A stretch of 48,670 nt of DNA from a virus: IMG/VR virus record IMGVR_UViG_3300027784_000001, positions 1-48,670 of that record; one strand, given 5' to 3'. Within the stretch, counting starts at the first letter, position 1. Every line of letters begins with the position of its first letter. Under the pieces are notes generated by a model. It did no database searches. It saw nothing but the letters and a program-made list of their open reading frames with translations, and was not told the DNA's origin. Positions 2,528 to 48,670 of the stretch are shown here, piece by piece. The translations under genes and the position numbers were made by a program.

Positions 2528-2542
2528 GTTACAATTTGTAAC
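2528..2542. promoter_or_regulatory. Perfect 15-bp palindrome GTTACAA-T-TTGTAAC, built from the same TTGTAAC half-site that is reiterated at 46547-46945
   Basis: Read directly. The half-site recurs at least 8 times in the 46.5 kb hub. Confidence 0.5.
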
Positions 2543-3109: not shown

Positions 3110-3475
3110 CCCTGTGACGGCTGTGACGGAGTGTGACGGCAATGTGACGGCCCCCCTGTCACAGCGGCTCGCCCGCCTATAGCCCCGTTTAACGCATCCG
3201 TGCACGGGCAGTGTGACGCTGTGACGGCTCTGCCCTATTACTATATATATAAAACATGCTTTTTTCTTAAATTCTTTCCATTTTCAAAATTCTACCAATA
3301 TAAGAGAGGGGTGTCACAAACGTACAAAAAATTTCTAATCTGGCGCTATTACTGGATTTCCGCTGTGACACCCACCCCGTCACAGTGCCGTCACAGGCCG
3401 TCACAGCCGTCACAAATTGCAGATTCCCTAATGATCTCGGGCACTTAACCCCGTCACAGCCCCCGTCACGGCCAA
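3110..3475. repeat. Iteron module A: arrays of TGTGACGG / CCGTCACA at helical spacing flanking an AT-rich (TA)n core (3233-3310); homologous to module B at 25538-25895
   Basis: Forward octamers at 3113, 3122, 3132, 3143, 3212 and 3220. Inverted copies at 3157, 3312, 3377, 3388, 3398, 3407, 3451 and 3463. Long blocks are identical to module B, e.g. GGCGGCTCGCCCGCCTATAGCC, CCCTATTACTATATATAT, ATGCTTTTTTCTTAAATTCT and GGGGTGTCACAAA. Confidence 0.85.
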
Positions 3476-3726
3476 AGACCACAAGGCTTGCTAGCGCGCT
3501 CGCAGAGGGAGGCTTATCACAAACCTGAGTCCAGCGGGCTGTTATCCCTAATACCTTTCGGCTGTGTGTCGACAAAAGGAGGTGGCCTAGCGGGCTATAT
3601 GGGACCCACGAGGTGCGTAGAGAGTGATAAGAGCCCCTGAGCTCCTCCTACCCCTCCTTGCGTAGATTTCGTTACTGTGTAGGTTTGACCTTGGATGGCC
3701 CCACTTTACTGACCAGAGAGGCTTAT

Positions 3727-4566
3727 ATGCAATTCGACCCCGAGGCAGCAAAACAACAGATACGCGACCTCCATAAGAGGGGGCTCAGCGTCAAGCAAAT
3801 AGCAGAGAAGACGGAGCTACACCACACCGCGGTGAGTCGGGAGCTATACGGCCACGACCACTACCTCATCCAACGGCGGATGGTCAAGCTGCTCGACAAG
3901 GGCTATAGCCGCAGGGAGATAGCCAACAAGCTCAACGTCGAATATGAGTTCGTCCTGACAGTGCTCTCGCGGGCAGGCCGCTCTGGTAGCGAAGATCGGC
4001 GCATGCTCTCCCCCGGCGACCGAGAAGACGCGCTAAAAATGTACATGAACGGGGCCACCGCGCACGAAGTGGGAGAGAAGTACGACCTCGCCGCACAGAC
4101 CGTCTGGAACCTCGCCTCTAAACACGGCGCCCAGAAGTCTGGGAATGAGGACTGGGAGAAAGACGCCATCGCGTACCGCGTACTTGTCAAGCGCCAGCGC
4201 ATGACCACAGCGCTACAGGGGCTATCGATGGGCCGGAGCACGGCGGTCTGGTACCGCTTCAAGGACCCCATCACCAACCCGGAGTTCTACCGCAAGCATG
4301 GCATCACCTATGACGATATTAAACACCGCTATCGCTTCAAGGGCACCACGGCAGAGATTAGCCGCTATTGGAAGGTCTACGTGGATGTGAACGAGAACGG
4401 CATGTCCTATACGGACGCGCAAGAGAAGTACGCCATCACCCGCTACAAGGTGCGGGATTCGGCCCAGCTGGGCTCAGTCAACGCCTTCGTGGCCTGCTGG
4501 GAGCTCGCCCTCCGACGGGGCCAGCTGCCTATTGGCGATAATCATACGTCTGATGGAGGCCAGTAA
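3727..4566 (+). CDS. DNA-binding protein with 4-5 tandem helix-turn-helix modules (terS/resolvase-type HTH repeats), first gene of the packaging cluster
   Basis: Repeated segments: RGLSVKQIAEKTELHHTAVSREL, KGYSRREIANKLNVEYEFVLTVL, NGATAHEVGEKYDLAAQTVWNLA and GLSMGRSTAVWYRF. ATG at 3727 with an AGAGAGG box. The listed ORF start 3658 is a TTG with no RBS. Confidence 0.7.
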   Translation: MQFDPEAAKQQIRDLHKRGLSVKQIAEKTELHHTAVSRELYGHDHYLIQRRMVKLLDKGYSRREIANKLNVEYEFVLTVLSRAGRSGSEDRRMLSPGDREDALKMYMNGATAHEVGEKYDLAAQTVWNLASKHGAQKSGNEDWEKDAIAYRVLVKRQRMTTALQGLSMGRSTAVWYRFKDPITNPEFYRKHGITYDDIKHRYRFKGTTAEISRYWKVYVDVNENGMSYTDAQEKYAITRYKVRDSAQLGSVNAFVACWELALRRGQLPIGDNHTSDGGQ

Positions 4567-6906: not shown

Positions 6907-8298
6907 ATGGCTAATGAGCAGTTCGAGGCTGTCCATGACAGCATCAAAAACTATATCACGAATGTCGGGACGAGTAAAGACCCGATAGAGCATGGGCGGC
7001 CATCATACGGAGAAAGGCTGACCCCTAACGAGCTCGATGCCGCCTTCGTACAGAATGACTTGGCCCGGCGTATCATCACCGAGCTACCCACGGACTCAAT
7101 CCGCACCGGCCTCCCGCCCATGGTCTACGCGGACACCGGGGAGAAGGTGGAGCTTCCCTTTAGGCAAGAGCGCGAGCTCATCGACAAAATTAAGATGGGG
7201 GCTATCAACGGGCGCCTGTACGGCGGCGCTTTCATCTTGTGCATCACCGAAGAGACCGAGAACCTCGCGGAGCCTATCGACTGGGATAACCCGCCGAAGG
7301 CCGTCAACACCATTGGGCTAGACCGCTATGAGGCCGTGCCCACAGAGTGGGGCAAGGATGCCTTCCGAGAGGACTTCCAAAAGCCCCGCTTCTACTCTAT
7401 CCACCCCCAAGGGCGATCCGCTAAGCATAAGCGCTACCCGCGAGTGCACCGCAGCCGGCTCCTGCCCTTCCACGGGAACAAGCTCCCCAAGCGCATTCGC
7501 AAGCGCAACCAAGACTACCACGACTCCGTGCTACAGGTTGTGTGGTCTTGCATCTCCCGCTATGTCCAGTCTGAGAAGTCGGTGGCCAATATCATCAACC
7601 GCTTCGAGATTGCCACTATGTCCATCAGTGGGCTGCGCGATGCTATGTCCACAGAAGAGGGCGTAGAGATGGTGGAAACGCGCATGGATATGCTGCACCG
7701 CAGCTTGTCTATACTCAAGCTTGCCATGATCGATGCTGACGCCGGCGAACAGTATAGCCGACAGTTCGCACAGGTGAACGGCTTGGAGCTCCTGCTGGAC
7801 CGGCTAGCCCAGTCTGTGGCGAAAGCTGCGCGGTATCCCATGACCCAGCTGTTCGGTGAGGACAGTGCTGGCATACGCGGAGACGACGAGGCCGGAGCCA
7901 AGGCTTGGCGAAAGCAGGTAGAAGAGTACCAGATTAATGATTTACTTGACCCTACCCTGCGACTGGTTAGTGTAGTTACTGGACGTAGAGTTGAGCCCGT
8001 GCGCTCTGCCGATGGCACCGTTAGATGGGGCCTCGCAGAGAGCCCTCGACCCATCGACCAAGCCCGAATTGATGAGAAGCGAAAGGACTGGGTTACTGGG
8101 CTACTGACCGACGGCGTTATTACCCTCCGAGAAGCCCGCCAACTCATGGCACAAGACGAAATTGACTGGAGTGACTACAGTGAAATTGAGGCCGACGACT
8201 ACAGCGGCGAAGCAGAGCCAGAGCCGGGAGTGGACCCTGCTGAGGGACCGGGCACCGAATCTGGAGCCCCTGAACCCGGAGGCGGAGTATCGGTATAA
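6907..8298 (+). CDS. Portal protein
   Basis: 463 aa from ATG 6907 (GAGG RBS), directly after terL, with an acidic C-terminal tail. Size and context fit the DUF1073-type portals that pair with the downstream scaffold/capsid genes. Confidence 0.75.
   Translation: MANEQFEAVHDSIKNYITNVGTSKDPIEHGRPSYGERLTPNELDAAFVQNDLARRIITELPTDSIRTGLPPMVYADTGEKVELPFRQERELIDKIKMGAINGRLYGGAFILCITEETENLAEPIDWDNPPKAVNTIGLDRYEAVPTEWGKDAFREDFQKPRFYSIHPQGRSAKHKRYPRVHRSRLLPFHGNKLPKRIRKRNQDYHDSVLQVVWSCISRYVQSEKSVANIINRFEIATMSISGLRDAMSTEEGVEMVETRMDMLHRSLSILKLAMIDADAGEQYSRQFAQVNGLELLLDRLAQSVAKAARYPMTQLFGEDSAGIRGDDEAGAKAWRKQVEEYQINDLLDPTLRLVSVVTGRRVEPVRSADGTVRWGLAESPRPIDQARIDEKRKDWVTGLLTDGVITLREARQLMAQDEIDWSDYSEIEADDYSGEAEPEPGVDPAEGPGTESGAPEPGGGVSV
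6950..6978 (-). promoter_or_regulatory. Candidate sigma70 promoter for the antisense gene: TTTACT-N17-TGaTATAGT (extended -10), embedded in the portal 5' coding region
   Basis: On the minus strand the -35 is at 6978-6973 and the -10 at 6955-6950, with TG at -15/-14. It lies about 55 nt upstream of the ATG at 6889. Confidence 0.4.
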
Positions 8299-25563: not shown

Positions 25564-25895
25564 CGGCAATGTGACGCGGGGGGTGTCACGGCGGCTCGCC
25601 CGCCTATAGCCTCGGCTAAGCGATCTGACCGGGCTAGATGTGACGGCGTGACGGGGTGGCCCTATTACTATATATATATAATATGCTTTTTTCTTAAATT
25701 CTGTACAGATTGAAATTCCTACTAACTTATAGAAGGGGTGTCACAAATGGGGGAACAAAGCCGAGATCCGAGGCTATAGCTGGCCGATACGGTGTGACGG
25801 CCCCCCTGTCACAAGGGTGTCACAAGGCCCGGTAGCCGTCACAAAACGCCGATTCCTCAACGATTCCAGGCACTTAGCCCCGTCACAAGCCCCCC
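25538..25895. repeat. Iteron module B: second copy of the GTGACGG/CCGTCAC + (TA)n core module (core 25660-25735)
   Basis: Forward copies at 25540, 25549, 25559, 25570 (spacing 9/10/11, as in A), 25639, 25648 and 25793. Inverted copies at 25584, 25739, 25807, 25818, 25836 and 25880. Confidence 0.85.
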
Positions 25896-27926: not shown

Positions 27927-30314
27927 ATGAATGTTACTCTATTTAATCGGCTAAACGTTCCGGGCTGGTCCGGCCAAGGCCGCTGCACGACCCCCCGTGC
28001 TCCTGTCATGACACTCGAAGAGGCACTGGCCAAGCAGAGCCGCGGCGCGCTCCTCATCTGCGGGTATGCCCCGCTAGACGAAGACAAGGCCCAGTGCCCC
28101 CGCCTCCTTAAGTCCTCTATCGCCCGCTTTGGGGCCTCGCGCTATGCCTACACTGCGGTGCTTGTTGATATTGATTACGAAGACCACGAAGTCCCCCCGG
28201 ACAACTGGCACAAAGGGGTGCTGGGCAAGGTCGCCAGTACCGACTTGCCGGCGCCGGCGTGGTACCGCACGCCCCACGGCATGCGGCTGGTATGGCAGCT
28301 CGAAGCTGCTATCCCCCTCAAGTTCGCCGATAGCGCCAATGCTATGGTCCACCGTAAGCTCAATGCTGCGGGCATCGCTACGGATACGGGCACCACGGAC
28401 TGGACGCGGATGTTTTACGGCCCGTTCGCCCGCGGCAGGGACCTGCCCCACGGCAGGCTTGACGACGTGCCGGAGCTGGCCATCGACCCTGCAAACCACG
28501 AGGAGGCCAAGCCCAAGTCCCTCGGCGAGACCACGGCCCGCGACCGGCCTGCCGACCTCTCTGAGACGGTCAAAAGGGCGGAGTTGCAGCCGGTCAAGAG
28601 CGTGAACAAACAGCTGGCCGACGACCTCTACCGGGGCGCGCTGGGAGCGCCTGTGGGCAAGCGGCATGCCACACTGCTTAAGGTGGCTCTAGAGCTCTCC
28701 TTTATCTACGAGAGCGCGGACCCACTAAAGCCCTACCGCCTCCTGTACAACTCTTGCGTCCAGATGGGCAAAGACCCCGCGGAGCTCTGGCGGATATGCG
28801 AATGGTCGGCAGCTGCCTTTGCTGGCCACCTAGAGGAGACTGAGGAGGACCGTAAGAGGGCCATGAAACAGGCCCGAGAGGCGTTGGACTGCGACGGCGA
28901 AGAGATTGAGCAGCAGCTCGTGCTAATGCAGAGCCCCGAATACTACGTCTGGGATTCCACGGAGCGGACTTACTCGCACGCATACACCGACAAGGCCCAG
29001 ATACTAGCGGCCCTCAAGCGCCACTGCCCGATGCTGGCCATGGACCCCATCTGGGAGGCCATGCAGAACCGGATTATCCTCCGAGACTACTCCAGCCCGC
29101 TCCGTCGGGTTATCTACTCCTACAACGCGGACTCTGCCCACTATGATAAGGACTACCAAGAGCTCCTTATGCCCACGGCCAAGCAAGACCCGGAGCTCAT
29201 CCCTACCTACCACGAAGACGTAGCGGGCTGGCTATCTGCGCTCTTCGGGCCGCACGAGCAGCGGGGCCTCAACTGGCTTGCGGCTTATCCCCGCCTAGAC
29301 CGTCCGGTCTGTGCCTTGTATGTCAACGGGCCCAACTCCATCGGAAAGGGGCTCTTGGCCGTTGGCCTAGCCCGGCTCCACTCTCGCCATGGGGAGTTCA
29401 CAAAGTACGGCGAGATCGTCAACCAGTTCCAGTCTAGCTTCGCCCACTGCCCGCTGGTTGTGGCCGACGAGAAGGTCCCTACTGACGCCTTCACTAAGAA
29501 CGACTCTTCGCTCTTCCGCCAGTTGGTAGGTAACGGCACGCACTCTGTCAACGAAAAGAACCGCTCCGAGTATACTGTACTCGGGTACCCACGGGTACTC
29601 ATCACTGCGAATAACGAGGATGCGCTTGCCATCCGCGAGGACCTCAACTCGGAAGACCTAGAGGCGATTAAACGCCGTGTTGGTTATATCGATAGAGGAG
29701 CGGATAACGCCGCCGAAGAGTACCTTGTTGAGATGACTGCCGACCGCGGATTTGAGAATACCCACGACTTGACAGAGAGTTGGGCGGATGGTAGAATCGC
29801 GGAGCACGTCCTGTGGCTCGAAGAGAACCACGAGTACAAGGCCGACCAAAGGTTTTTAGTGGAAGGCTGGAGCTCGGACTTTACGGAGAGCTTAGTCACT
29901 AATGTCGGCAGAGCCGGCGAGATAGCTGAGACGGTTATTATGGCAGTCGCACAAGACTACAATTGCCCCGGTATCCGGTGGTTTGATGGCAAGCTGTTCG
30001 TTAATGCCAACGGCCTGATTAGTAACTGGAGCAATATCCGTAATAACGACTTCGATAAGCCGCCCAGCCCGCATAGCCGCACCAAGGCCCTGCGCTCGCT
30101 GGCGAACAACTCCAAGAAGCGGCTCCGGCGGCAGGGCTCGATGAAACGCTACTGGGAGATTGACGCGACGGTGCTGGCCCGCCTCGCTGATAGCCAGAAC
30201 ATCATGGACCCCGATAGCCTGATAGCGGCCACGTCCCGAAGCAAGGACAAAGATAAAGAGCACAGCAACGGCGGTAACGCCGGTACTTCTAACAAGATAG
30301 TGGAGATGGGATGA
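27927..30314 (+). CDS. Bifunctional primase-polymerase / D5-like (SF3) helicase
   Basis: N-terminal prim-pol-like VLVDIDYEDHE and TPHGMRLVW. Central P-loop NGPNSIGKG and Walker B LVVADEK. 795 aa. Confidence 0.65.
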   Translation: MNVTLFNRLNVPGWSGQGRCTTPRAPVMTLEEALAKQSRGALLICGYAPLDEDKAQCPRLLKSSIARFGASRYAYTAVLVDIDYEDHEVPPDNWHKGVLGKVASTDLPAPAWYRTPHGMRLVWQLEAAIPLKFADSANAMVHRKLNAAGIATDTGTTDWTRMFYGPFARGRDLPHGRLDDVPELAIDPANHEEAKPKSLGETTARDRPADLSETVKRAELQPVKSVNKQLADDLYRGALGAPVGKRHATLLKVALELSFIYESADPLKPYRLLYNSCVQMGKDPAELWRICEWSAAAFAGHLEETEEDRKRAMKQAREALDCDGEEIEQQLVLMQSPEYYVWDSTERTYSHAYTDKAQILAALKRHCPMLAMDPIWEAMQNRIILRDYSSPLRRVIYSYNADSAHYDKDYQELLMPTAKQDPELIPTYHEDVAGWLSALFGPHEQRGLNWLAAYPRLDRPVCALYVNGPNSIGKGLLAVGLARLHSRHGEFTKYGEIVNQFQSSFAHCPLVVADEKVPTDAFTKNDSSLFRQLVGNGTHSVNEKNRSEYTVLGYPRVLITANNEDALAIREDLNSEDLEAIKRRVGYIDRGADNAAEEYLVEMTADRGFENTHDLTESWADGRIAEHVLWLEENHEYKADQRFLVEGWSSDFTESLVTNVGRAGEIAETVIMAVAQDYNCPGIRWFDGKLFVNANGLISNWSNIRNNDFDKPPSPHSRTKALRSLANNSKKRLRRQGSMKRYWEIDATVLARLADSQNIMDPDSLIAATSRSKDKDKEHSNGGNAGTSNKIVEMG

Positions 30315-35566: not shown

Positions 35567-35815
35567 ATGTTTGGATTCTCAACGAAGCAAGCTAAAGCCC
35601 TCAAACAACTCGTAGAGCAGAGCGGCGACGACGGATTCATGCGCATCGGCATGGGGCTGGGTAAGGTCCACCACAAGACCGCAGCCGTGCTGCGAGACAG
35701 TGGCCTCATCACCATCACCGAAGATGCGGAGCATGGGCGCATTGCCACCATCACCGAAGAGGGGCGCAAAGCCGCCTCGCTATTCAGCGCCCAGCCCGAG
35801 CTGCCTACTGGCTAA
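35567..35815 (+). CDS. Small winged-helix / HTH-like DNA-binding protein (tentative)
   Basis: 82 aa. The pattern HHKTAAVLRDSGLITITEDAEHGRIATITEEGRK resembles a wHTH recognition helix plus wing. Confidence 0.5.
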   Translation: MFGFSTKQAKALKQLVEQSGDDGFMRIGMGLGKVHHKTAAVLRDSGLITITEDAEHGRIATITEEGRKAASLFSAQPELPTG

Positions 35816-45673: not shown

Positions 45674-46176
45674 TGAGTGCACAGCTACAGATTAACATCG
45701 AAGAGGAGTCTAGCTTCCCGCTTACGGTGCCCTTTGGAGGCAAGGAAGTTGGTGCGGTCTGGGGCACGTTTAGCCATCCCTTCGGGGACCTGCCCCGCTT
45801 CACGGCCCGCGGCGGCCCGGAGCATAAGCCCGTGGCCCCGCTGATTGACGTGATGCCCTCGCCCATCGTCGTTATCCCAGAGCTCCGCGCGAAGCCCCAA
45901 CAGGCCGGCCTCATCAAGCGCTACATGCGCCTACTCCACCGCTCAGACCAGCCTTCGGTGCTGGCTATCTGGGGAGACTTCTGGACCCCTGCAATCATGG
46001 AGAAAGCGGCCCTCTACTCCTACGGCAATAGCGTGTTCCGGGTGGAGGAGGCCACGTGGCAGTTTGGCCGCGTATACGAGACTAGCAGAGTGGTGTACTG
46101 CTACAACGGGCTCGAAGACCCGCACCGCACGCGGCGCCTGAGTAACGGGGTGTCTTTCCGTGTTTCTCACCTGTAA
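45673..46176 (+). CDS. Hypothetical protein (167 aa), last gene before the regulatory hub
   Basis: ORF with ATGA-type coupling to the resolvase gene. Confidence 0.6.
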   Translation: MSAQLQINIEEESSFPLTVPFGGKEVGAVWGTFSHPFGDLPRFTARGGPEHKPVAPLIDVMPSPIVVIPELRAKPQQAGLIKRYMRLLHRSDQPSVLAIWGDFWTPAIMEKAALYSYGNSVFRVEEATWQFGRVYETSRVVYCYNGLEDPHRTRRLSNGVSFRVSHL

Positions 46177-46183
46177 TAGGGTG

Positions 46184-46214
46184 CCCCCATAAAAGGGGGG
46201 AGGGGGAGGGGGGG
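46184..46214 (+). other. C5/G5 hairpin (46184-46199) running into a G6-A-G5-A-G7 tract (46195-46214)
   Basis: Sequence GCCCCCATAAAAGGGGGGAGGGGGAGGGGGGG immediately after the stop codon of the last gene. Confidence 0.5.
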
Positions 46215-46546
46215 TACGCCCCGGCGCCGAGGCAGTTGCCAAAGTGTCCGGGGCTTTTCTGCGCCTGCTTTCTGCGGGCGCTCCGGAGCTCGCCGGGAAA
46301 CACCTCGGAGCTTCGCCGGGAAGAGGGCGGAGTAAGTCTGTAGGAAAGGCAGAGGGGCCGCCGGAGTTACTCGCGGAGCTGCTGAGAAAAGGTCCGCGCT
46401 GCCTCCCAAAATAGTCCGGGACTTGCTGTAGAAATACCCCGGAGCTCTCCGAGGCCCCTAGTGGAAAAGGGCAGAGGGTACTTATAAAATTTTTGAAAAA
46501 TCGCCAGAATAATGTGTATAGGGGTTCATAACCTCCAGCCACCCCG

Positions 46547-46720
46547 TTTGTAACTTTTTGTAACTTTTTGTTAAAAATCGTTAAAAATCGTTAAAAATCG
46601 TTAAAAATCGTTAAATTTTGTTAAATTTTGTAACGGAATGTAAAGCTGGTGATTATGTAACTTTTGGTTAATTTTTGTAACTTTTAGTAAAATATTGTAA
46701 AGCTTTGTTAAGTTGGATTT
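46547..46720. repeat. AT-rich array of 10-bp-phased repeats: 2x TTGTAACTTT, 4x GTTAAAAATC, 2x GTTAAATTTT, then looser TGTAAC/TGTAAA/GTTAA units
   Basis: Strict 10-bp register from 46548 to 46640, visible as identical 10-nt columns in the sequence listing. It degenerates toward 46720. Confidence 0.9.
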
Positions 46721-46740
46721 GTACGAAACTTTACATTCGT

Positions 46741-46756
46741 TGGCACGAACCTTGCA
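46741..46756 (+). promoter_or_regulatory. Sigma54-type -24/-12 element S1: TGGCACGaaccTTGCA
   Basis: Exact fit to TGGCACG-N4-TTGCW. Confidence 0.7.
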
Positions 46757-46794
46757 TGCGCGGACTCGCCCGCGTTACATTTCTTTTCACGCGC

Positions 46795-46810
46795 TGGCAC
46801 GGTTCTTGCT
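46795..46810 (+). promoter_or_regulatory. Sigma54-type -24/-12 element S2: TGGCACGgttcTTGCT
   Basis: Exact fit to TGGCACG-N4-TTGCW. Confidence 0.7.
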
Positions 46811-46850
46811 TTCAAAAATTCCGGCCTTCGCAACACAACTTTACATTCGT

Positions 46851-46866
46851 TGGCACGGATGTTGCA
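46851..46866 (+). promoter_or_regulatory. Sigma54-type -24/-12 element S3: TGGCACGgatgTTGCA
   Basis: Exact fit to TGGCACG-N4-TTGCW. Confidence 0.7.
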
Positions 46867-46905
46867 TGGCCGCCCGCCGGGGAAGTTACATTTCTTTTCA
46901 TTCGT

Positions 46906-46921
46906 TGGCACGGGCCTTGCA
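46906..46921 (+). promoter_or_regulatory. Sigma54-type -24/-12 element S4: TGGCACGggccTTGCA
   Basis: Exact fit to TGGCACG-N4-TTGCW. Confidence 0.7.
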
Positions 46922-46993
46922 TGGCTGGACGGGGCCGACTTGTAACATTTTGTACGTCTATGTAAAAGAATGTTGCGAAATTAATTTCTGGGC

Positions 46994-47009
46994 TGGCACG
47001 AACCTTGCA
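46994..47009 (+). promoter_or_regulatory. Sigma54-type -24/-12 element S5: TGGCACGaaccTTGCA
   Basis: Exact fit to TGGCACG-N4-TTGCW. Confidence 0.7.
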
Positions 47010-47060
47010 ATCCTTTATAGGGGGGGCTGAGCACGGCGATATACTTTCTGACTATGGCGC

Positions 47061-47089
47061 TTGACACCTCCTGCCCTATCCCTTACTTT
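47061..47089 (+). promoter_or_regulatory. Early sigma70-type promoter P1: TTGACA-N17-TACTTT
   Basis: Consensus -35 and 17-nt spacer. The conserved leader GGGGTGCGGCAGACGAGAAC(AC)n...AGAAAAGGA follows. Confidence 0.65.
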
Positions 47090-47136
47090 CGGGGTGCGGC
47101 AGACGAGAACACACTGACCAGAGAAAAGGATTACCA

Positions 47137-47574
47137 ATGCTCCGCATCCATCGTACATACCAACTCAACGGAACGCTCGGCGTTGTCTACAGCGTCGACG
47201 GCCAGCGCTGCTCTACAGCGCTCCCTAAAGGCGTGGAAGGGCGCGAAGCCATCGCCGCCTATCTTGGCGCCGACCTTGACCTTGAACCTGCTAGCGCTCC
47301 CGTGGAGGCGCCGCTTGCGATTGCGAGCGCCGGGTTGGCGCTGGCAGCGTTGGGTGCTCCGTTGGCGTTCGTCGCCACGCTGGCCACGCTGGCGTTGGCT
47401 ATTTGGCTGTCGACTAGTGACGCCACTGGTCCGGCCGGTCGCATTAGCGATGCCACCACGGCCATCCTGCCACCTAGTGGCGACGAGTTGGACTATGCCG
47501 CGTGGCGCGAGGGGATTCAGTCCGCGGAAAGCGCAAGGTGGACGCTGGCCAGAATTTCCGAGAAAAGCGCTTGA
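47137..47574 (+). CDS. Early protein with a central Ala/Leu-rich membrane-spanning region
   Basis: 145 aa with an AAAAGGA RBS. Hydrophobic stretch APLAIASAGLALAALGAPLAFVATLATLALAIWL. Its stop codon TGA lies inside the -35 of P2. Confidence 0.65.
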   Translation: MLRIHRTYQLNGTLGVVYSVDGQRCSTALPKGVEGREAIAAYLGADLDLEPASAPVEAPLAIASAGLALAALGAPLAFVATLATLALAIWLSTSDATGPAGRISDATTAILPPSGDELDYAAWREGIQSAESARWTLARISEKSA

Positions 47575-47599
47575 CACCTGCTCCTGCATCCCTTATTTT
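47571..47599 (+). promoter_or_regulatory. Early sigma70-type promoter P2: TTGACA-N17-TATTTT
   Basis: An ~82-nt promoter block (47555-47636) matches P3 (47917-47993) apart from one extra AC repeat in P2; their leaders diverge at the RBS. Confidence 0.65.
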
Positions 47600-47651
47600 C
47601 GGGGTGCGGCAGACGAGAACACACACACACAGACCAGAAAAGGAATGGCCC

Positions 47652-47915
47652 ATGGATACACCGCGACGAGCACGCAAGACCACCGTTCAGCGCCTTGTAA
47701 GGGGGTTGGAGGCAACCTTAGAGTTTGACCCTCAGACCCTCTATATCTACTCCCCCCGTGGCACGGTATTTAGCGCCACCGGAACGTCCACCATCGCCAT
47801 TGGATTTGCTGATGCTTTTGGTTCGTGGCGTCCAGTTGCTTATGGTGAAGCTGTGGACCTTCTAGACCACGGTGTCGAGTCCGCCCCCGCCGACTACCGC
47901 GGCTGGTGGGAATAA
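47652..47915 (+). CDS. Early hypothetical protein (87 aa)
   Basis: ATG 47652 preceded by GAAAAGGAA. The upstream part of listed ORF 47502..47915 covers the promoter and leader and is rejected. Confidence 0.6.
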   Translation: MDTPRRARKTTVQRLVRGLEATLEFDPQTLYIYSPRGTVFSATGTSTIAIGFADAFGSWRPVAYGEAVDLLDHGVESAPADYRGWWE

Positions 47916-47932
47916 GTTTCCGAGAAAAGCGC

Positions 47933-47961
47933 TTGACACCTGCTCCTGCATCCCTTATTTT
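47933..47961 (+). promoter_or_regulatory. Early sigma70-type promoter P3: TTGACA-N17-TATTTT
   Basis: Same promoter block as P2 (differs only by one fewer AC repeat); the leader diverges at the RBS. Confidence 0.65.
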
Positions 47962-48013
47962 CGGGGTGCGGCAGACGAGAACACACACACTGACCAGAGA
48001 AAAGGATAGCACA

Positions 48014-48214
48014 ATGAACGCCCCACTGTTTGACACCTCGACGGTAATTCTTATCAAAGCGGGGAAGGCTGCGATTCGGGCAGGACATACGCTGGATGAT
48101 TTCCTCGACGGCTACTTGCGCCATAGCGCTGAGCCCGAGCTTGACGCACGCCGCGTCAAGGGGGCGCGATTTGAGTTGGGCGTTTTTGAGCGCTGTGCAA
48201 ATAATCTCAAATAA
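48014..48214 (+). CDS. Early hypothetical protein (66 aa)
   Basis: ATG 48014 preceded by GAGAAAAGGA. Confidence 0.6.
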   Translation: MNAPLFDTSTVILIKAGKAAIRAGHTLDDFLDGYLRHSAEPELDARRVKGARFELGVFERCANNLK

Positions 48215-48218
48215 GCGC

Positions 48219-48247
48219 TTGACAAGGGGCTCGCACCCCGCTATTGT
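48219..48247 (+). promoter_or_regulatory. Early sigma70-type promoter P4: TTGACA-N17-TATTGT
   Basis: Shares AAGCGCTTGACA with P1-P3 but has a different spacer (containing a GGGG/CCCC inverted repeat) and a different leader. Confidence 0.55.
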
Positions 48248-48309
48248 CCCCCTCCCGGCGGAAATGGTTCCCTCGGGGCAAAATTGAAACTCTAGAAAAG
48301 GAATGACCA

Positions 48310-48670
48310 ATGGAATACACCACCGAGAAATCGATTCTCCACCACTCTCGCGACGGCTACAGCGCGCTAGAAGCCACCCTCTTCAACGCTCAACTTTCCA
48401 CGGTCCAGAGGAGCCAGCGCATTGGCGACCGGATTGGCCGGTTCTCAGCACTCCACGGCGCCGGTAGCAGGCTTCGTGCTGGACGCTATGCCGCCGGGCT
48501 GGCGCGCAAAGCGGGTGATGCTTGCCTCGCTAATGCAGCGCGCAAAGCGGCACTTGCCACCTGCGACGCGCTGCAAGTAGCGCTTGGGTTGACTGATATC
48601 AGCGGCATCGATGGCGCCACGACTTGCTACGGCGAATTGGCGCCGGGCGACGTGTTGCAACGCACGGATG
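48310..48670 (+). CDS. 5' part of the early hypothetical protein gene that continues across the junction to base 326
   Basis: ATG 48310 preceded by GAAAAGGAA. The frame is open to the window end, which is why it is absent from the ORF track (no stop in the window). Confidence 0.7.
   Translation, partial: MEYTTEKSILHHSRDGYSALEATLFNAQLSTVQRSQRIGDRIGRFSALHGAGSRLRAGRYAAGLARKAGDACLANAARKAALATCDALQVALGLTDISGIDGATTCYGELAPGDVLQRTD
48572..48670. repeat. Terminal direct repeat, the partner of bases 1-99
   Basis: 99/99 identity. Confidence 0.95.

Follow-up and report, generated by a model that had tools for sequence, protein, structure and literature searches.

A helically phased array of TGTAAC-like cores upstream of five tandem sigma54 promoters in a viral genome: a candidate protein-binding strip

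We analyzed a 48,670-nucleotide stretch of viral DNA (IMG/VR virus record IMGVR_UViG_3300027784_000001, positions 1 to 48,670; hereafter the window). Its largest intergenic gap, between a replication/recombination module and the early genes, holds an AT-rich repeat array followed by five tandem sigma54 promoters (P1-P5), and the gene at 47137-47574 lies downstream of both P5 and a sigma70-like early promoter. The 356-aa and 167-aa proteins encoded beside the array are ORFans among 5.8 billion proteins. We found no DNA similarity to cultured phages, and the nearest TerL from a cultured phage, a Bacillus phage, is 31% identical; relatives of PolA and TerL were either too distant or on contigs too short to reach the array region. 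All phage genes lie on one strand, and GC skew is therefore uninformative. GC-rich direct repeats (CCGGAGCTCGCCGGGAA-like) occur upstream of the array at 46283-46451, and GTCACAG arrays flank an AT-rich core directly upstream of a TerS-like gene. No known RNA families were found. The features discussed below are as follows.

2528..2542 (no strand assigned): palindrome GTTACA-ATT-TGTAAC, the core as an inverted pair, among the few sites outside 46.5-47.0 kb
46482..46503 (+ strand): AT-rich block TTATAAAATTTTTGAAAAATCG, a short way 5' of the array; repeat family D6
46548..46647 (+ strand): sub-array I, 10 units in strict 10-bp register
46648..46655 (no strand assigned): linker GGTGATTA, which moves the register by 7 bp (core 10 to core 11, 17 bp)
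46656..46715 (+ strand): sub-array II, six units in strict 10-bp register
46720..46735 (+ strand): TGTACGAAACTTTACA, a TGT-N10-ACA dyad and the right half of an imperfect palindrome at 46696-46735 (inverted repeat I13)
46741..46755 (+ strand): sigma54 promoter P1, TGGCACGAACCTTGC, with an inverted core TTTACA at 46730-46735
46774..46809 (+ strand): GTTACATTTC-TTTTCACGCGC-TGGCACGGTTCTTGC, including sigma54 promoter P2 (46795-46809); repeat family D3
46840..46865 (+ strand): inverted core TTTACA (46840-46845) and sigma54 promoter P3 (46851-46865)
46885..46920 (+ strand): GTTACATTTC-TTTTCATTCGT-TGGCACGGGCCTTGC, inverted cores and sigma54 promoter P4 (46906-46920)
46941..46980 (+ strand): sub-array III, TGTAACATTT, TGTACGTCTA, TGTAAAAGAA and TGTTGCGAAA in 10-bp register; repeat family D2
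46994..47008 (+ strand): sigma54 promoter P5, TGGCACGAACCTTGC, followed by the first sigma70-like early promoter (TTGACA at 47052)

A preliminary description of this locus had reported an ordered series of repeat units in exact 10-bp register, and both order and register were confirmed by the sequence and by Tandem Repeats Finder, which returned period-10 arrays at 46547-46571, 46570-46615 and 46656-46690. Sub-array I consists of two TTGTAACTTT units (46548, 46558), four GTTAAAAATC units (46570-46609), two GTTAAATTTT units (46610-46629), and single GTAACGGAAT (46630) and GTAAAGCTGG (46640) units. Its cores run TGTAAC (twice), TGTTAA, CGTTAA (four times), TGTTAA, TGTAAC and TGTAAA, with T4, A4TC and A1T4 tracts as spacers. 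The units beyond it, up to 46720, had been described as looser; they are indeed present, but six of them are also strictly 10-bp phased, at a 7-bp offset. These are the units of sub-array II, with the cores TGTAAC, GGTTAA, TGTAAC, AGTAAA, TGTAAA and TGTTAA (46656-46711). Because the linker shifts the register by 7 bp, sub-arrays I and II point to different sides of the helix. The cores of sub-array III (TGTAAC, TGTAC, TGTAA and TGTTG; 46941-46976) lie within the promoter series, between P4 and P5.

What is conserved among the units is the core, YGTWAM (TGTAAC, TGTTAA or TGTAAA; consensus TGTAAC), and not the A/T tracts: GT.A is invariant in all 16 units of sub-arrays I and II, and units 9 and 10 retain TGTAA with no A/T tract. 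All 16 GTWA tetramers between 46540 and 46725 are in phase, where about 0.8 would be expected from the genome-wide density of 4.25 per kb. The self-identity of the array at a lag of 10 was 0.68, compared to 0.335 +/- 0.035 in 2000 shuffles (maximum 0.44). The array is also the lowest-GC 150-bp window of the genome (20.7%), and the consensus core is concentrated around it, with six of the eight forward and two of the four reverse genome copies of TGTAAC falling in 46.5-47.0 kb. An independent JGI assembly (L480) carries the same 10 + 6 units and differs from the window at only three bases over 2.9 kb, converting unit 6 from GTTAAAAATC to GTTAAATTTT; this population variant alters one spacer type and keeps the core, unit number, length and phase. 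Because the window and L480 are short-read assemblies and a third contig, L056, ends inside the array, the count of identical GTTAAAAATC units may be too low.

Sigma54 promoters are silent until an ATP-driven activator (bacterial enhancer-binding protein, bEBP) acts on them. The five promoters here lie downstream of sub-arrays I and II, with the -24 element (TGGCAC) of P1 starting 29 nt past the end of the last sub-array II core. At P1-P4, inverted cores (TTTACA or GTTACA) occur 5 or 15 nt upstream of the -24 element. The one at P1 (TTTACA, 5 nt upstream) is part of the dyad at 46720-46735, which is the sole TGT-N10-ACA in the region and one of three in the whole genome; P2 has GTTACA 15 nt upstream and a degenerate core, TTTTCA, 5 nt upstream. 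We considered whether TTTACA/GTTACA could be sigma70 -35 boxes and ruled this out, as there is no usable -10 at 16-18 nt. The core as a -35 box of a phage sigma-like factor was likewise ruled out, since the core is nearly absent elsewhere in the genome.

Strong intrinsic curvature had also been proposed for the array. We ran the prediction with hand-entered values for the wedge-model parameters, and both models used, Bolshoy/Trifonov and AA-wedge, made the array more curved than any other locus in the genome. Sub-array I is predicted to bend by about 80-100 degrees and sub-array II by about 75 degrees, and the ratio of end-to-end distance to contour length over 120 bp was 0.79 and 0.70 under the two models, against medians of 0.98 and 0.99. 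Tracts of T4-5, A5 and A3T4 recur every 10 bp in units 1-8 and 11-13, as in phased A-tract DNA. The array is predicted on these models to be strongly bent.

The same layout is found in other viruses. A second viral family (L092, L174, L178, L179 and L180; hereafter the L174 family) has TGTAAC units at 10-bp spacing interleaved with sigma54 promoters; the search pattern that found it specifies ~22.5 bases, for a chance expectation on the order of 0.1-0.2 if the collection has an assumed size of ~1e11 bases. Copy number in this family is 4, 4 + 2, or 8 + 2 (2-10 units), and units come as near as 1 nt to the -24 element. An 11-mer of the AT-rich block at 46482..46503, TTATAAAATTT, is the only block that the window has in common with the L174, L092 and L180 cassettes in an alignment. 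In L092, L178 and L179 an AlpA-like gene, divergently transcribed, adjoins the cassette, as read from the sequence. We found no protein common to the window and the L174 family by tblastn and phmmer, in a comparison that covered partial contigs of the family and that a small shared regulator may escape. The TGTAACCGAA run of L180, with eight units, is predicted to be straight (end-to-end/contour 0.99-1.00). Curvature is thus not kept across related elements, and because of this straight run we regard the phased protein-binding sites as the conserved feature and curvature as a local extra.

A third group, the ITR family (~11-kb contigs with inverted terminal repeats), carries TTAACATTTC-N11-TGGCAC, with the same 15-nt gap as the window's GTTACATTTC-N11-TGGCAC and no similarity between the spacers. 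Three unrelated groups pair tandem sigma54 sites, which a pattern scan located in >119 viral contigs, with a TGTWAM/KTWACA core (KTWACA being the reverse complement). Outside viruses, TGTAAC-N4-TGTAAT near sigma54 sites gave 14 genome matches across phyla, probably mostly chance in AT-rich promoter DNA. Conservation was seen only in two orthologous Spirochaeta MAG loci: in both, TGTAAC-N4-TGTAAC has stayed at exactly 30 nt before a sigma54 site, while the intervening sequence has diverged.

We also asked how widespread the motif is by itself. Viral and metagenome contigs hold at least 246 arrays of three or four TGTAAC units; a control hexamer, CAATGT, gave 45 loci, and TGTAAC at least 2.7 times the control. 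None of the 246 arrays listed has a sigma54 site within 400 bp, ruling out the idea that TGTAAC arrays form one widespread sigma54-linked class. Phased triplet repeats are common in phage DNA, and because of the 0/246 result and the control loci the motif alone implies no link to sigma54. An exact 20-mer of the array matches one unrelated viral contig, L001, which we rejected as a relative: it is an analogue only, in which a run of phased A-tracts immediately precedes a sigma70-type promoter.

The reading we favor, and to which we give a little short of an even chance, is that the array is a protein-binding strip occupied by one monomer per turn, probably of a co-opted host factor, which gates or assists the sigma54 early promoters. 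The sequence features behind it are the 16 + 4 in-phase cores, the inverted cores at fixed positions, and the filling of the spacers with A/T tracts. The preliminary description had suggested sites that are bound cooperatively on one DNA face, a suggestion that the invariant GTWA(M) core and the 10-bp spacing of TGTAAC in an unrelated family both support. Under the binding-strip reading, the array and the five tandem promoters would be a single regulatory unit. A sequence-specific DNA-binding protein would occupy the cores head to tail, one monomer per turn on one DNA face, and such cooperative, filament-like occupancy may bend or stiffen the DNA. Since the units lie against or among the promoters, their occupancy might then decide whether sigma54 RNA polymerase is engaged or activated at P1-P5, and the A/T tracts of this phage would pre-bend the DNA and so help distal units to reach the promoters. 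The effect could be activation or repression; its direction we purely infer. Known bEBPs bind dyads, and WalR-type sites have an 11-bp rather than a 10-bp period, which counts against this reading.

As to the binder, scans of roughly 60 phage ORFs against Pfam and PHROGs returned no bEBP (Sigma54_activat), OmpR-type or Xis/AlpA-type protein and no match to an integrase or HTH_17. Two observations lead us to prefer a host factor: phages that are unrelated have the motif in common but no protein, and phages enlarge the array rather than lose it. It is possible, if doubtful, that the phage has co-opted such a factor and uses its many sites to capture it, favoring sigma54-driven early transcription. 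A broader claim, which we think unlikely, is that TGTWAM one-turn arrays are phage-borne 'super-enhancers' or capture platforms with which unrelated phages would hijack a host protein working with sigma54 RNA polymerase and thereby set off tandem sigma54 early promoters; the hijacked protein could belong to an undescribed class, a direct-repeat binder beside the -24 element.

One alternative is that the locus is a replication origin, with the phased cores as iterons for a phage initiator, possibly the primase-helicase at 27927-30314, a superfamily 3 (SF3) helicase of DUF5906 type. The array would serve at the same time as a DNA-unwinding element, with transcriptional activation coming from the neighboring promoters, as at the origins of lambda and T7. 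Repeated sites in the most AT-rich segment of the genome give the locus the form of an iteron origin, though form says nothing of function, and its position in the largest gap, beside the replication/recombination module, and the presence of an SF3 helicase gene fit as well. SaPI and P4 origins lie just after the primase-helicase gene, and 19 other viral loci have three TGTAAC units at 10-bp spacing no more than ~5 bp from the stop codon of a VapE/BT4734/DUF5906 primase-helicase. In the window, however, the primase-helicase gene is 16 kb from the array, no initiator gene adjoins the array, beyond the helicase core the enzyme is not similar to those encoded beside TGTAAC arrays, and a consensus scan found no DnaA boxes within 6 kb. 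An origin would also leave unexplained why, in the window as in the L174 family, cores are interspersed with sigma54 -24 elements and keep a fixed distance to them. We judge this alternative improbable.

Similarly improbable, in our estimate, is that the array is an operator for a phage-encoded regulator, either of Apl/Cox/Xis/BldC type or the MarR-like protein at 35567-35815, whose cooperative spreading over the array would silence or switch the early promoters at a later stage of infection. The architecture is that of the operators of recombination directionality factors (RDFs) and Apl, with at least three adjacent one-turn direct repeats, bending, and a location at early promoters (PMC7498355). 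The AlpA-like gene beside the cassette in three members of the L174 family also favors a phage regulator, and the palindrome at 2528-2542 suggests a second operator. The protein at 35567-35815 has 82 aa and a winged-helix model (pLDDT 70) whose best PDB matches are of the MarR family (TM 0.6-0.7). It has no family assignment in Pfam or PHROGs, however, and being encoded in the replication module it could equally serve the GTCACAG arrays. No integrase or excision context was moreover found in the window, and the parts of the L174 family compared share no protein with it.

A pure intrinsic bend without a dedicated protein, replacing integration host factor (IHF) for an activator bound at 46180-46470 or acting as an UP-like element, appears to us quite improbable. 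A-tract bends stand in for IHF at promoters of the nifLA, Pu and glnHp2 type, and phased A-tracts raise promoter activity via the alpha subunit of RNA polymerase; in the window, the highest predicted curvature of the genome under two models, the CCGGAGCTCGCCGGGAA-like repeats as possible activator sites, and the L001 run upstream of its sigma70-type promoter would all fit. A consensus scan found no IHF site near the array, which is compatible with replacement of IHF but proves nothing. Against a pure bend, the invariant GT.A core is not needed for curvature, units 9 and 10 are cores without a tract, the two bends lie in different planes owing to the 7-bp phase jump, and cores also lie between and beside promoters, where a loop-forming bend makes no sense. 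The L180 array, homologous in layout and with the longest run among the relatives, is predicted straight, and units of relatives abut the -24 element rather than lying between a distal enhancer and the promoter. The earlier proposal of a bend replacing IHF is thus not supported as the array's primary function.

We give a similarly low probability to a classical sigma54 enhancer, a sub-case of the favored reading in which a host bEBP, for example a TyrR- or GcsR-like protein, would use the cores as half-sites. TyrR and GcsR sites use the same half-site (PMC4894688), sub-array I is 130-220 nt upstream of P1 (94-193 nt counted to TGGCAC), within the ~70-200 bp typical of enhancers, and the dyad at 46720-46735 is 85-100 nt upstream of the P2 start. 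The 16 units are 10-bp direct repeats, though, and that dyad is the only one in the region, which has no TGTAAN-N6-NTTACA box; units of relatives 1 nt from the -24 element are too near for looping, and the scanned phage ORFs include no bEBP gene. Least credible is a partition centromere (ParR/parC- or TubR/tubC-like) or a repeat tied to genome ends or packaging: the array resembles parC and tubC, in which direct repeats phased at 10-12 bp cluster in two blocks, and it separates the last transcription unit from the first in a genome with all genes on one strand, but the scanned ORFs include no ParA, ParM, TubZ or other partition NTPase or adaptor gene (Pfam, PHROGs), and the GTCACAG arrays upstream of the TerS-like gene are a better packaging candidate.

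If the array is a binding strip, five sigma54 promoters and a strip of 16-20 sites before the early genes would tie the start of infection to a host signal. The literature searched did not describe arrays of sigma54 promoters in any phage genome. Were the capture-platform idea true, sigma54-dependent early transcription gated by host state would be a recurrent phage strategy. Should the binder be a host factor, the array would be a ready-made affinity bait and a lead to the host, possibly Spirochaeta-like, and the natural expansion of site number (4 to 10 to 16 units) would tune a cooperative switch. As an origin or a mere bend, the finding would be ordinary.

The array shares features with several known systems. 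A-tract bends aid sigma54 promoters at K. pneumoniae nifLA and at engineered Pu and glnAp2, and phased A-tracts also occur as UP-like elements. Like these, the window has phased A/T tracts upstream of a -24/-12 promoter, no IHF site, and strong predicted curvature; there, however, a bend without a conserved core separates a dyad enhancer from the promoter, whereas in the window a GTWA(M) core is what is conserved, and in a relative the cores persist without curvature. SF3-adjacent iteron origins (P4 ori/crr, SaPI ori) also combine short repeated cores, AT-rich context and an encoded helicase (here DUF5906), but the window array is not beside the helicase gene and is interleaved with promoters.

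The TyrR/PhhR/GcsR boxes have the same half-site, TGTAAA/TGTAAC: the TyrR box is TGTAAA-N6-TTTACA and the GcsR site TGTAACG-N4-CGTTCCG, and GcsR, whose promoter is preceded by three sites, is itself a true sigma54 activator (PMC4894688). These boxes are 18-bp palindromes, and bEBP sites generally are dyads (TGT-N10-12-ACA, TyrR boxes) (PMC6615313, PMC4894688), unlike the direct repeats of 10-bp period described here. The WalR/VicR box of the OmpR/PhoB family, TGTWAH-N5-TGTWAH, is a direct head-to-tail repeat (PMC4168254). Its half-site TGTWAH is matched exactly by 10 of the 16 units, and the other six differ only at position 1. WalR sites, however, have an N5 spacer, an 11-bp period and two units, whereas all units of the window array and of L180 have a 4-nt spacer and so a 10-bp period, and the array has 16 consecutive units. 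WalR also acts at sigma70-type promoters in Bacillota, which may not be the host group of this phage.

A further parallel in architecture is with RDF/Apl/Cox operators (186 Apl, P2 Cox, lambda/P22/Pukovnik Xis) and BldC operators, which are direct repeats one helical turn apart. RDF/Apl/Cox operators have 3-7 sites, at att sites or sigma70 switch promoters, with the protein encoded alongside, whereas the window has 16 + 4 sites tied to sigma54 promoters, with no integrase or cognate gene found. Apl and other RDFs bind such repeats with one monomer per turn and with an affinity that rises with site number (PMC7498355), and BldC likewise binds one monomer per turn, cooperatively and head to tail (PMC5859096). 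At RDF/Apl operators at least three adjacent sites are needed and binding bends the DNA, and Apl and Cox act at early promoters (PMC7498355, PMC5859096); the window array, with its 10 + 6 + 4 direct-repeat units at a 10-bp period, has the same one-turn arrangement.

The genome is circularly assembled and phage-like, with a 99-bp terminal overlap, a unit length of 48,571 bp, a GC content of ~58% and all credible genes on the + strand. Its genes were annotated with Pfam and PHROGs (a library of phage protein families).

Features of the window
3.6-25 kb, + strand: TerS-like HTH protein, TerL, portal, capsid and myovirus-type baseplate (Pfam/PHROGs)
26-46 kb, + strand: replication/recombination module with DUF5906 primase-helicase, PD-(D/E)XK nuclease, sigma-like protein, SF2 helicase, PolA, exonuclease and two pentapeptide proteins
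46741, 46795, 46851, 46906 and 46994, + strand: perfect TGGCAC-N5-TTGC sites (sigma54 promoters P1-P5; pattern scan)
47.1 kb across the junction to 2.1 kb, + strand: string of small ORFan early genes
2468-2485, 3113-3151, 3190-3230, 3377-3414, 3449-3473 and 25640-25830: GTCACAG-type repeats

The array lies in a 960-bp gap between the last replication-module gene (end 46176) and the first early gene (47137), and the proteins flanking it are ORFans. No close cultured phage was found for the window, and no known RNA families were found. The last replication-module gene has a potentially G-quadruplex-forming G-run, GGGGGGAGGGGGAGGGGGGG (46190-46215), right behind its stop codon, and GC-rich direct repeats (CCGGAGCTCGCCGGGAA-like, 46283-46451) follow downstream. 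Most of the small early genes are equipped with a TTGACA-N17-TAnTTT promoter of their own and with a 5' leader that recurs from gene to gene. On three of them (47052-47135, 47571-47650 and 47933-48013, with a variant at 48219-48300) these form near-identical cassettes of a TTGACA-N17-TA(C/T)TTT promoter and a ~55-nt leader (CGGGGTGCGGCAGACGAGAACACAC...GAAAAGGA), which suggests duplicated expression modules or a common leader-RNA function.

The preliminary description had reported an exact 10-bp register here, correctly: from 46548 the frames read TTGTAACTTT twice, TTGTTAAAAA, TCGTTAAAAA three times, TCGTTAAATT, TTGTTAAATT, TTGTAACGGA and ATGTAAAGCT (sub-array I). An 8-bp linker, GGTGATTA, follows unit 10 and produces a 7-bp register jump. 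The further units described as continuing loosely to 46720 do exist, but they are not loose, as six of them stand exactly 10 bp apart (46656-46711; sub-array II). Between P4 and P5 there is a further phased run, the third and shortest (46941-46976). All 16 GTWA tetramers within 46540-46725 are in phase, against ~0.8 predicted by the genome-wide density; self-identity at lag 10 is 0.68, compared with 0.335 ± 0.035 in shuffles, and the array is the GC minimum of the genome (20.7% per 150 bp). The units share a core, YGTWAM, in which G, T and A are constant (TGTAAC in five of the 16 units, CGTTAA in four, TGTTAA in three, TGTAAA in two, GGTTAA and AGTAAA in one each). The spacers vary (TTTT, AAAT, ATTT, GGAA, GCTG, ATAT, GCTT), and units 9 and 10 have the core without an A/T tract. 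The stretch from 46.5 to 47.0 kb holds six of the eight forward and two of the four reverse copies of TGTAAC in the whole genome; the core is nearly absent elsewhere, with two further copies accounted for by a palindrome, GTTACA-ATT-TGTAAC, at 2528-2542.

The phage is also present in run SRR490134 and in JGI sample 3300000557, where an independent, 99.5% identical assembly (L480, contig SL_8KL_010_SED) has the same array layout, its positions 766-865 corresponding to 46548-46647. Across 45784-48670 (2.9 kb) the two differ only at 46606 (A>T), 46607 (A>T) and 46609 (C>T). These changes turn the unit 6 spacer from AAAATC to ATTTT (A-tract type to A3T4 type) while keeping the core, the phase and all 10 units, and look like conversion or slippage inside the array.

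A one-mismatch scan of the whole window for sigma54 sites gave 10 matches against a shuffle mean of 3.1, and the five exact ones at P1-P5 are clustered. P1-P4 each have an inverted core (TTTACA, or TTTTCA in degenerate form) whose end is 5 nt ahead of TGGCAC; P2 and P4 have an additional GTTACA one turn further upstream, at a 15-nt gap. Unit 10 (GAATGTAAAG) is the exact reverse complement of CTTTACATTC, which adjoins P1 and P3. The array and the promoter cluster thus share one motif vocabulary and make up a single unit. A sixth perfect sigma54 site, on the minus strand at 2303-2289, is directed at the end of the early operon, with its 21-bp tandem repeat (2238-2277) and strong GC hairpin (2110-2156), and so could give rise to a short antisense or small RNA. 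A 16-mer, ACGAAACTTTACATTC, is common to 2164-2179 and 46723-46738.

Relatives were sought by pattern because protein searches reached none that covered the array region. Tandem sigma54 sites 30-60 nt apart occur in at least 119 viral contigs. Such TGGCACG-N4-TTGC sites (at least 119 loci, within L059-L177; for example L137, + strand 1964-2250, L073 and L131) prefer spacings of 26-28, 46-48 and 54-58 bp among the matches listed; L137 has up to 10 consecutively at 26-28 bp, too close for simultaneous polymerase binding. We found no description of tandem sigma54 sites in viral contigs in the literature.

Two of the contigs with tandem sigma54 sites (L174 and L092, 59% GC) have TGTAAC units at 10-bp spacing between these sites. 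A pattern of TGTAAC-N4-TGTAAY followed within 31 nt by a sigma54 site matched five viral loci, all of one family. L092, L178 and L179 carry the cassette TGTAAC cgaa TGTAAC ccct GCAAC cgtt CGTAAC c TGGCACG, to which L174 adds a second pair; L180 has eight copies of TGTAACCGAA and two more units, flanked by one degenerate and one intact sigma54 site, then a sigma70 promoter and the first gene. Copy number thus ranges from 2 to 10 across otherwise near-identical cassettes. The spacer in this family is CGAA, not an A/T tract. Among the contig parts compared, the window and this family have no protein in common, and the only common DNA is an 11-mer, TTATAAAATTT. A second group, of ~25 loci on ~11-kb contigs with inverted terminal repeats (ITRs; 44% GC), carries TTAACATTTC-N11-TGGCAC, with KTWACA, which is the core read in reverse complement, set 15 nt from the -24 element, a gap equal to that at P2 and P4, and with no similarity in the 11-nt spacer. 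Both ITRs of these contigs (L104 1-200, L149 1-320 and similar loci, mostly from IMG sample 3300045988) hold two to five tandem sigma54 sites that read inward, each preceded by TTAACATTTC-N11. In bacterial genomes the pattern of a TGTAAC pair ahead of a sigma54 site matched 14 loci from many phyla, most of which may be chance matches in AT-rich promoter DNA. Two are orthologous loci from Spirochaeta metagenome-assembled genomes (L183, minus strand 7354-7420, and L192, 2599-2665), ahead of an orthologous sigma-factor-like gene, with TGTAAC-N4-TGTAAC exactly 30 nt upstream of TGGCAC and diverged sequence between; in the window, 29 nt separate the end of sub-array II's last unit from P1. The two loci offer a lead to a regulator of host type and, possibly, to the clade of the host.

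The motif by itself does not imply a sigma54 link. At 10-bp spacing, viral TGTAAC triplets and metagenome TGTAAC quadruplets each occur at no fewer than 120 loci, and among the matches listed not one of the 246 arrays lay within 400 bp of a sigma54 site. The control hexamer CAATGT, matched in composition, gave 45 viral loci in triplicate, and 1.8 Mb of unselected viral loci contained a single 10-bp triplet, counting all hexamers. Short direct repeats in helical phase are thus a common device in phage DNA, with TGTAAC a frequent one.

What is kept across the window and both viral families is a GTWAC/GTWAA core, either self-phased or set at a constant distance from the -24 element; neither curvature nor AT-richness is kept. 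Such a pattern is the signature of protein recognition. The array is real and exceeds a curved AT-rich spacer, and we tentatively read it as a putative protein-binding regulatory array tied to sigma54 promoters.

An iteron origin is unlikely. At 19 viral loci (L200, L221, L245, L258, L274, L292, L310 and others) a TGTAAC triplet lies ~5 bp beyond a VapE/BT4734-N/DUF5906 primase-helicase gene, counted from its stop codon, and in many cases GTTACA, an inverted copy, stands a further 10-20 bp on. The placement is origin-like, resembling that in SaPI and P4, and the arrays probably serve the elements that carry them as origins or operators. The origin reading stays alive because the window too encodes a DUF5906 helicase, but that gene lies 16 kb from the array and has no further similarity to the array-adjacent ones.

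We likewise give little probability to a phage-encoded Apl/Cox-like regulator. An AlpA-like gene adjoins the cassette in L092, L178 and L179, and the window encodes, just upstream of PolA, an 82-aa ORFan (35567-35815) modelled as a stand-alone winged helix (pLDDT 70; best PDB matches in the MarR family, TM 0.6-0.7). This protein is a candidate binder of one of the window's two repeat systems, the second being unrelated GTCACAG / TGTGACGG units with a period of 9-11 bp. Its arrays at 3.1 and 3.4 kb are inverted about an AT-rich stretch (3240-3360), directly upstream of the TerS-like multi-HTH gene (3658-4566), and may be a pac/cos site or an operator of the late operon; the motif appears again at 25.6-25.8 kb, ahead of the replication module.

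A classical dyad enhancer for a host bacterial enhancer-binding protein (bEBP) is quite improbable. Predicted Clostridiales enhancer motifs are TGT-N10-12-ACA dyads (PMC6615313), and the array region has one instance, TGT-N10-ACA at 46720-46735.

Equally improbable is a pure intrinsic bend. The curvature proposed in the preliminary description was borne out in silico: under both a Bolshoy/Trifonov wedge table and a simple AA-wedge model, no other place in the genome is as curved as the array (peak at 46672). The 120-bp stretches with the lowest end-to-end/contour ratios begin at 46531-46541, with values of 0.79 and 0.70 where the medians are 0.98 and 0.99. Predicted net tangent deflection is ~80-100 degrees in sub-array I and ~75 degrees in sub-array II; all these numbers are indicative only. 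The 7-bp jump means that the two bends are not coplanar. The promoter block is predicted straight, and consensus scans found no IHF or DnaA sites nearby. Against a pure bend, curvature is not kept in relatives, the L180 run being predicted straight. Elsewhere, ~12 phased A-tract units (G/C-N-AAAAT-type, period ~10-11 bp) on an unrelated 90-kb viral contig (L001, minus strand 575-720) adjoin, upstream, a TTGACT-N17(TG)-TATAAT promoter, one of several repeated strong promoters there; a 16-mer, TTTTTGAAAAATCGCC, is common to L001 and window 46491-46506. No bEBP, Par or integrase genes were found among the window ORFs scanned, and a centromere or packaging repeat is a very remote prospect.

Under the protein-binding reading, a protein would bind the array, probably cooperatively with one monomer per turn; it would be host-encoded and would promote rather than block sigma54 transcription. 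A co-opted host factor that benefits the phage is favored because unrelated phages share the motif without a common protein, and because phages keep and expand the arrays rather than losing them. The benefit is most likely aid to the use of sigma54 promoters.

The array is best classed as an operator or architectural array of direct repeats in helical phase, here linked to tandem sigma54 promoters heading the phage early region, a combination not described in the searchable literature consulted. Its format (direct repeats, one per turn, variable unit number) is that of monomer-binding proteins that polymerize head-to-tail. BldC binds direct repeats in this way (PMC5859096), and the recombination directionality factors Apl, Cox and Xis need at least three sites, gain apparent affinity with site number and bend DNA (PMC7498355). 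The enhancer proteins TyrR and GcsR read TGTAAA/TGTAAC, as in the array, but as palindromes (PMC4894688). The direct-repeat format is also that of OmpR/PhoB-family response regulators, among them WalR/VicR, whose half-site, TGTWAH, is the one in the array, with a spacer of 5 nt where the array has 4 (PMC4168254).
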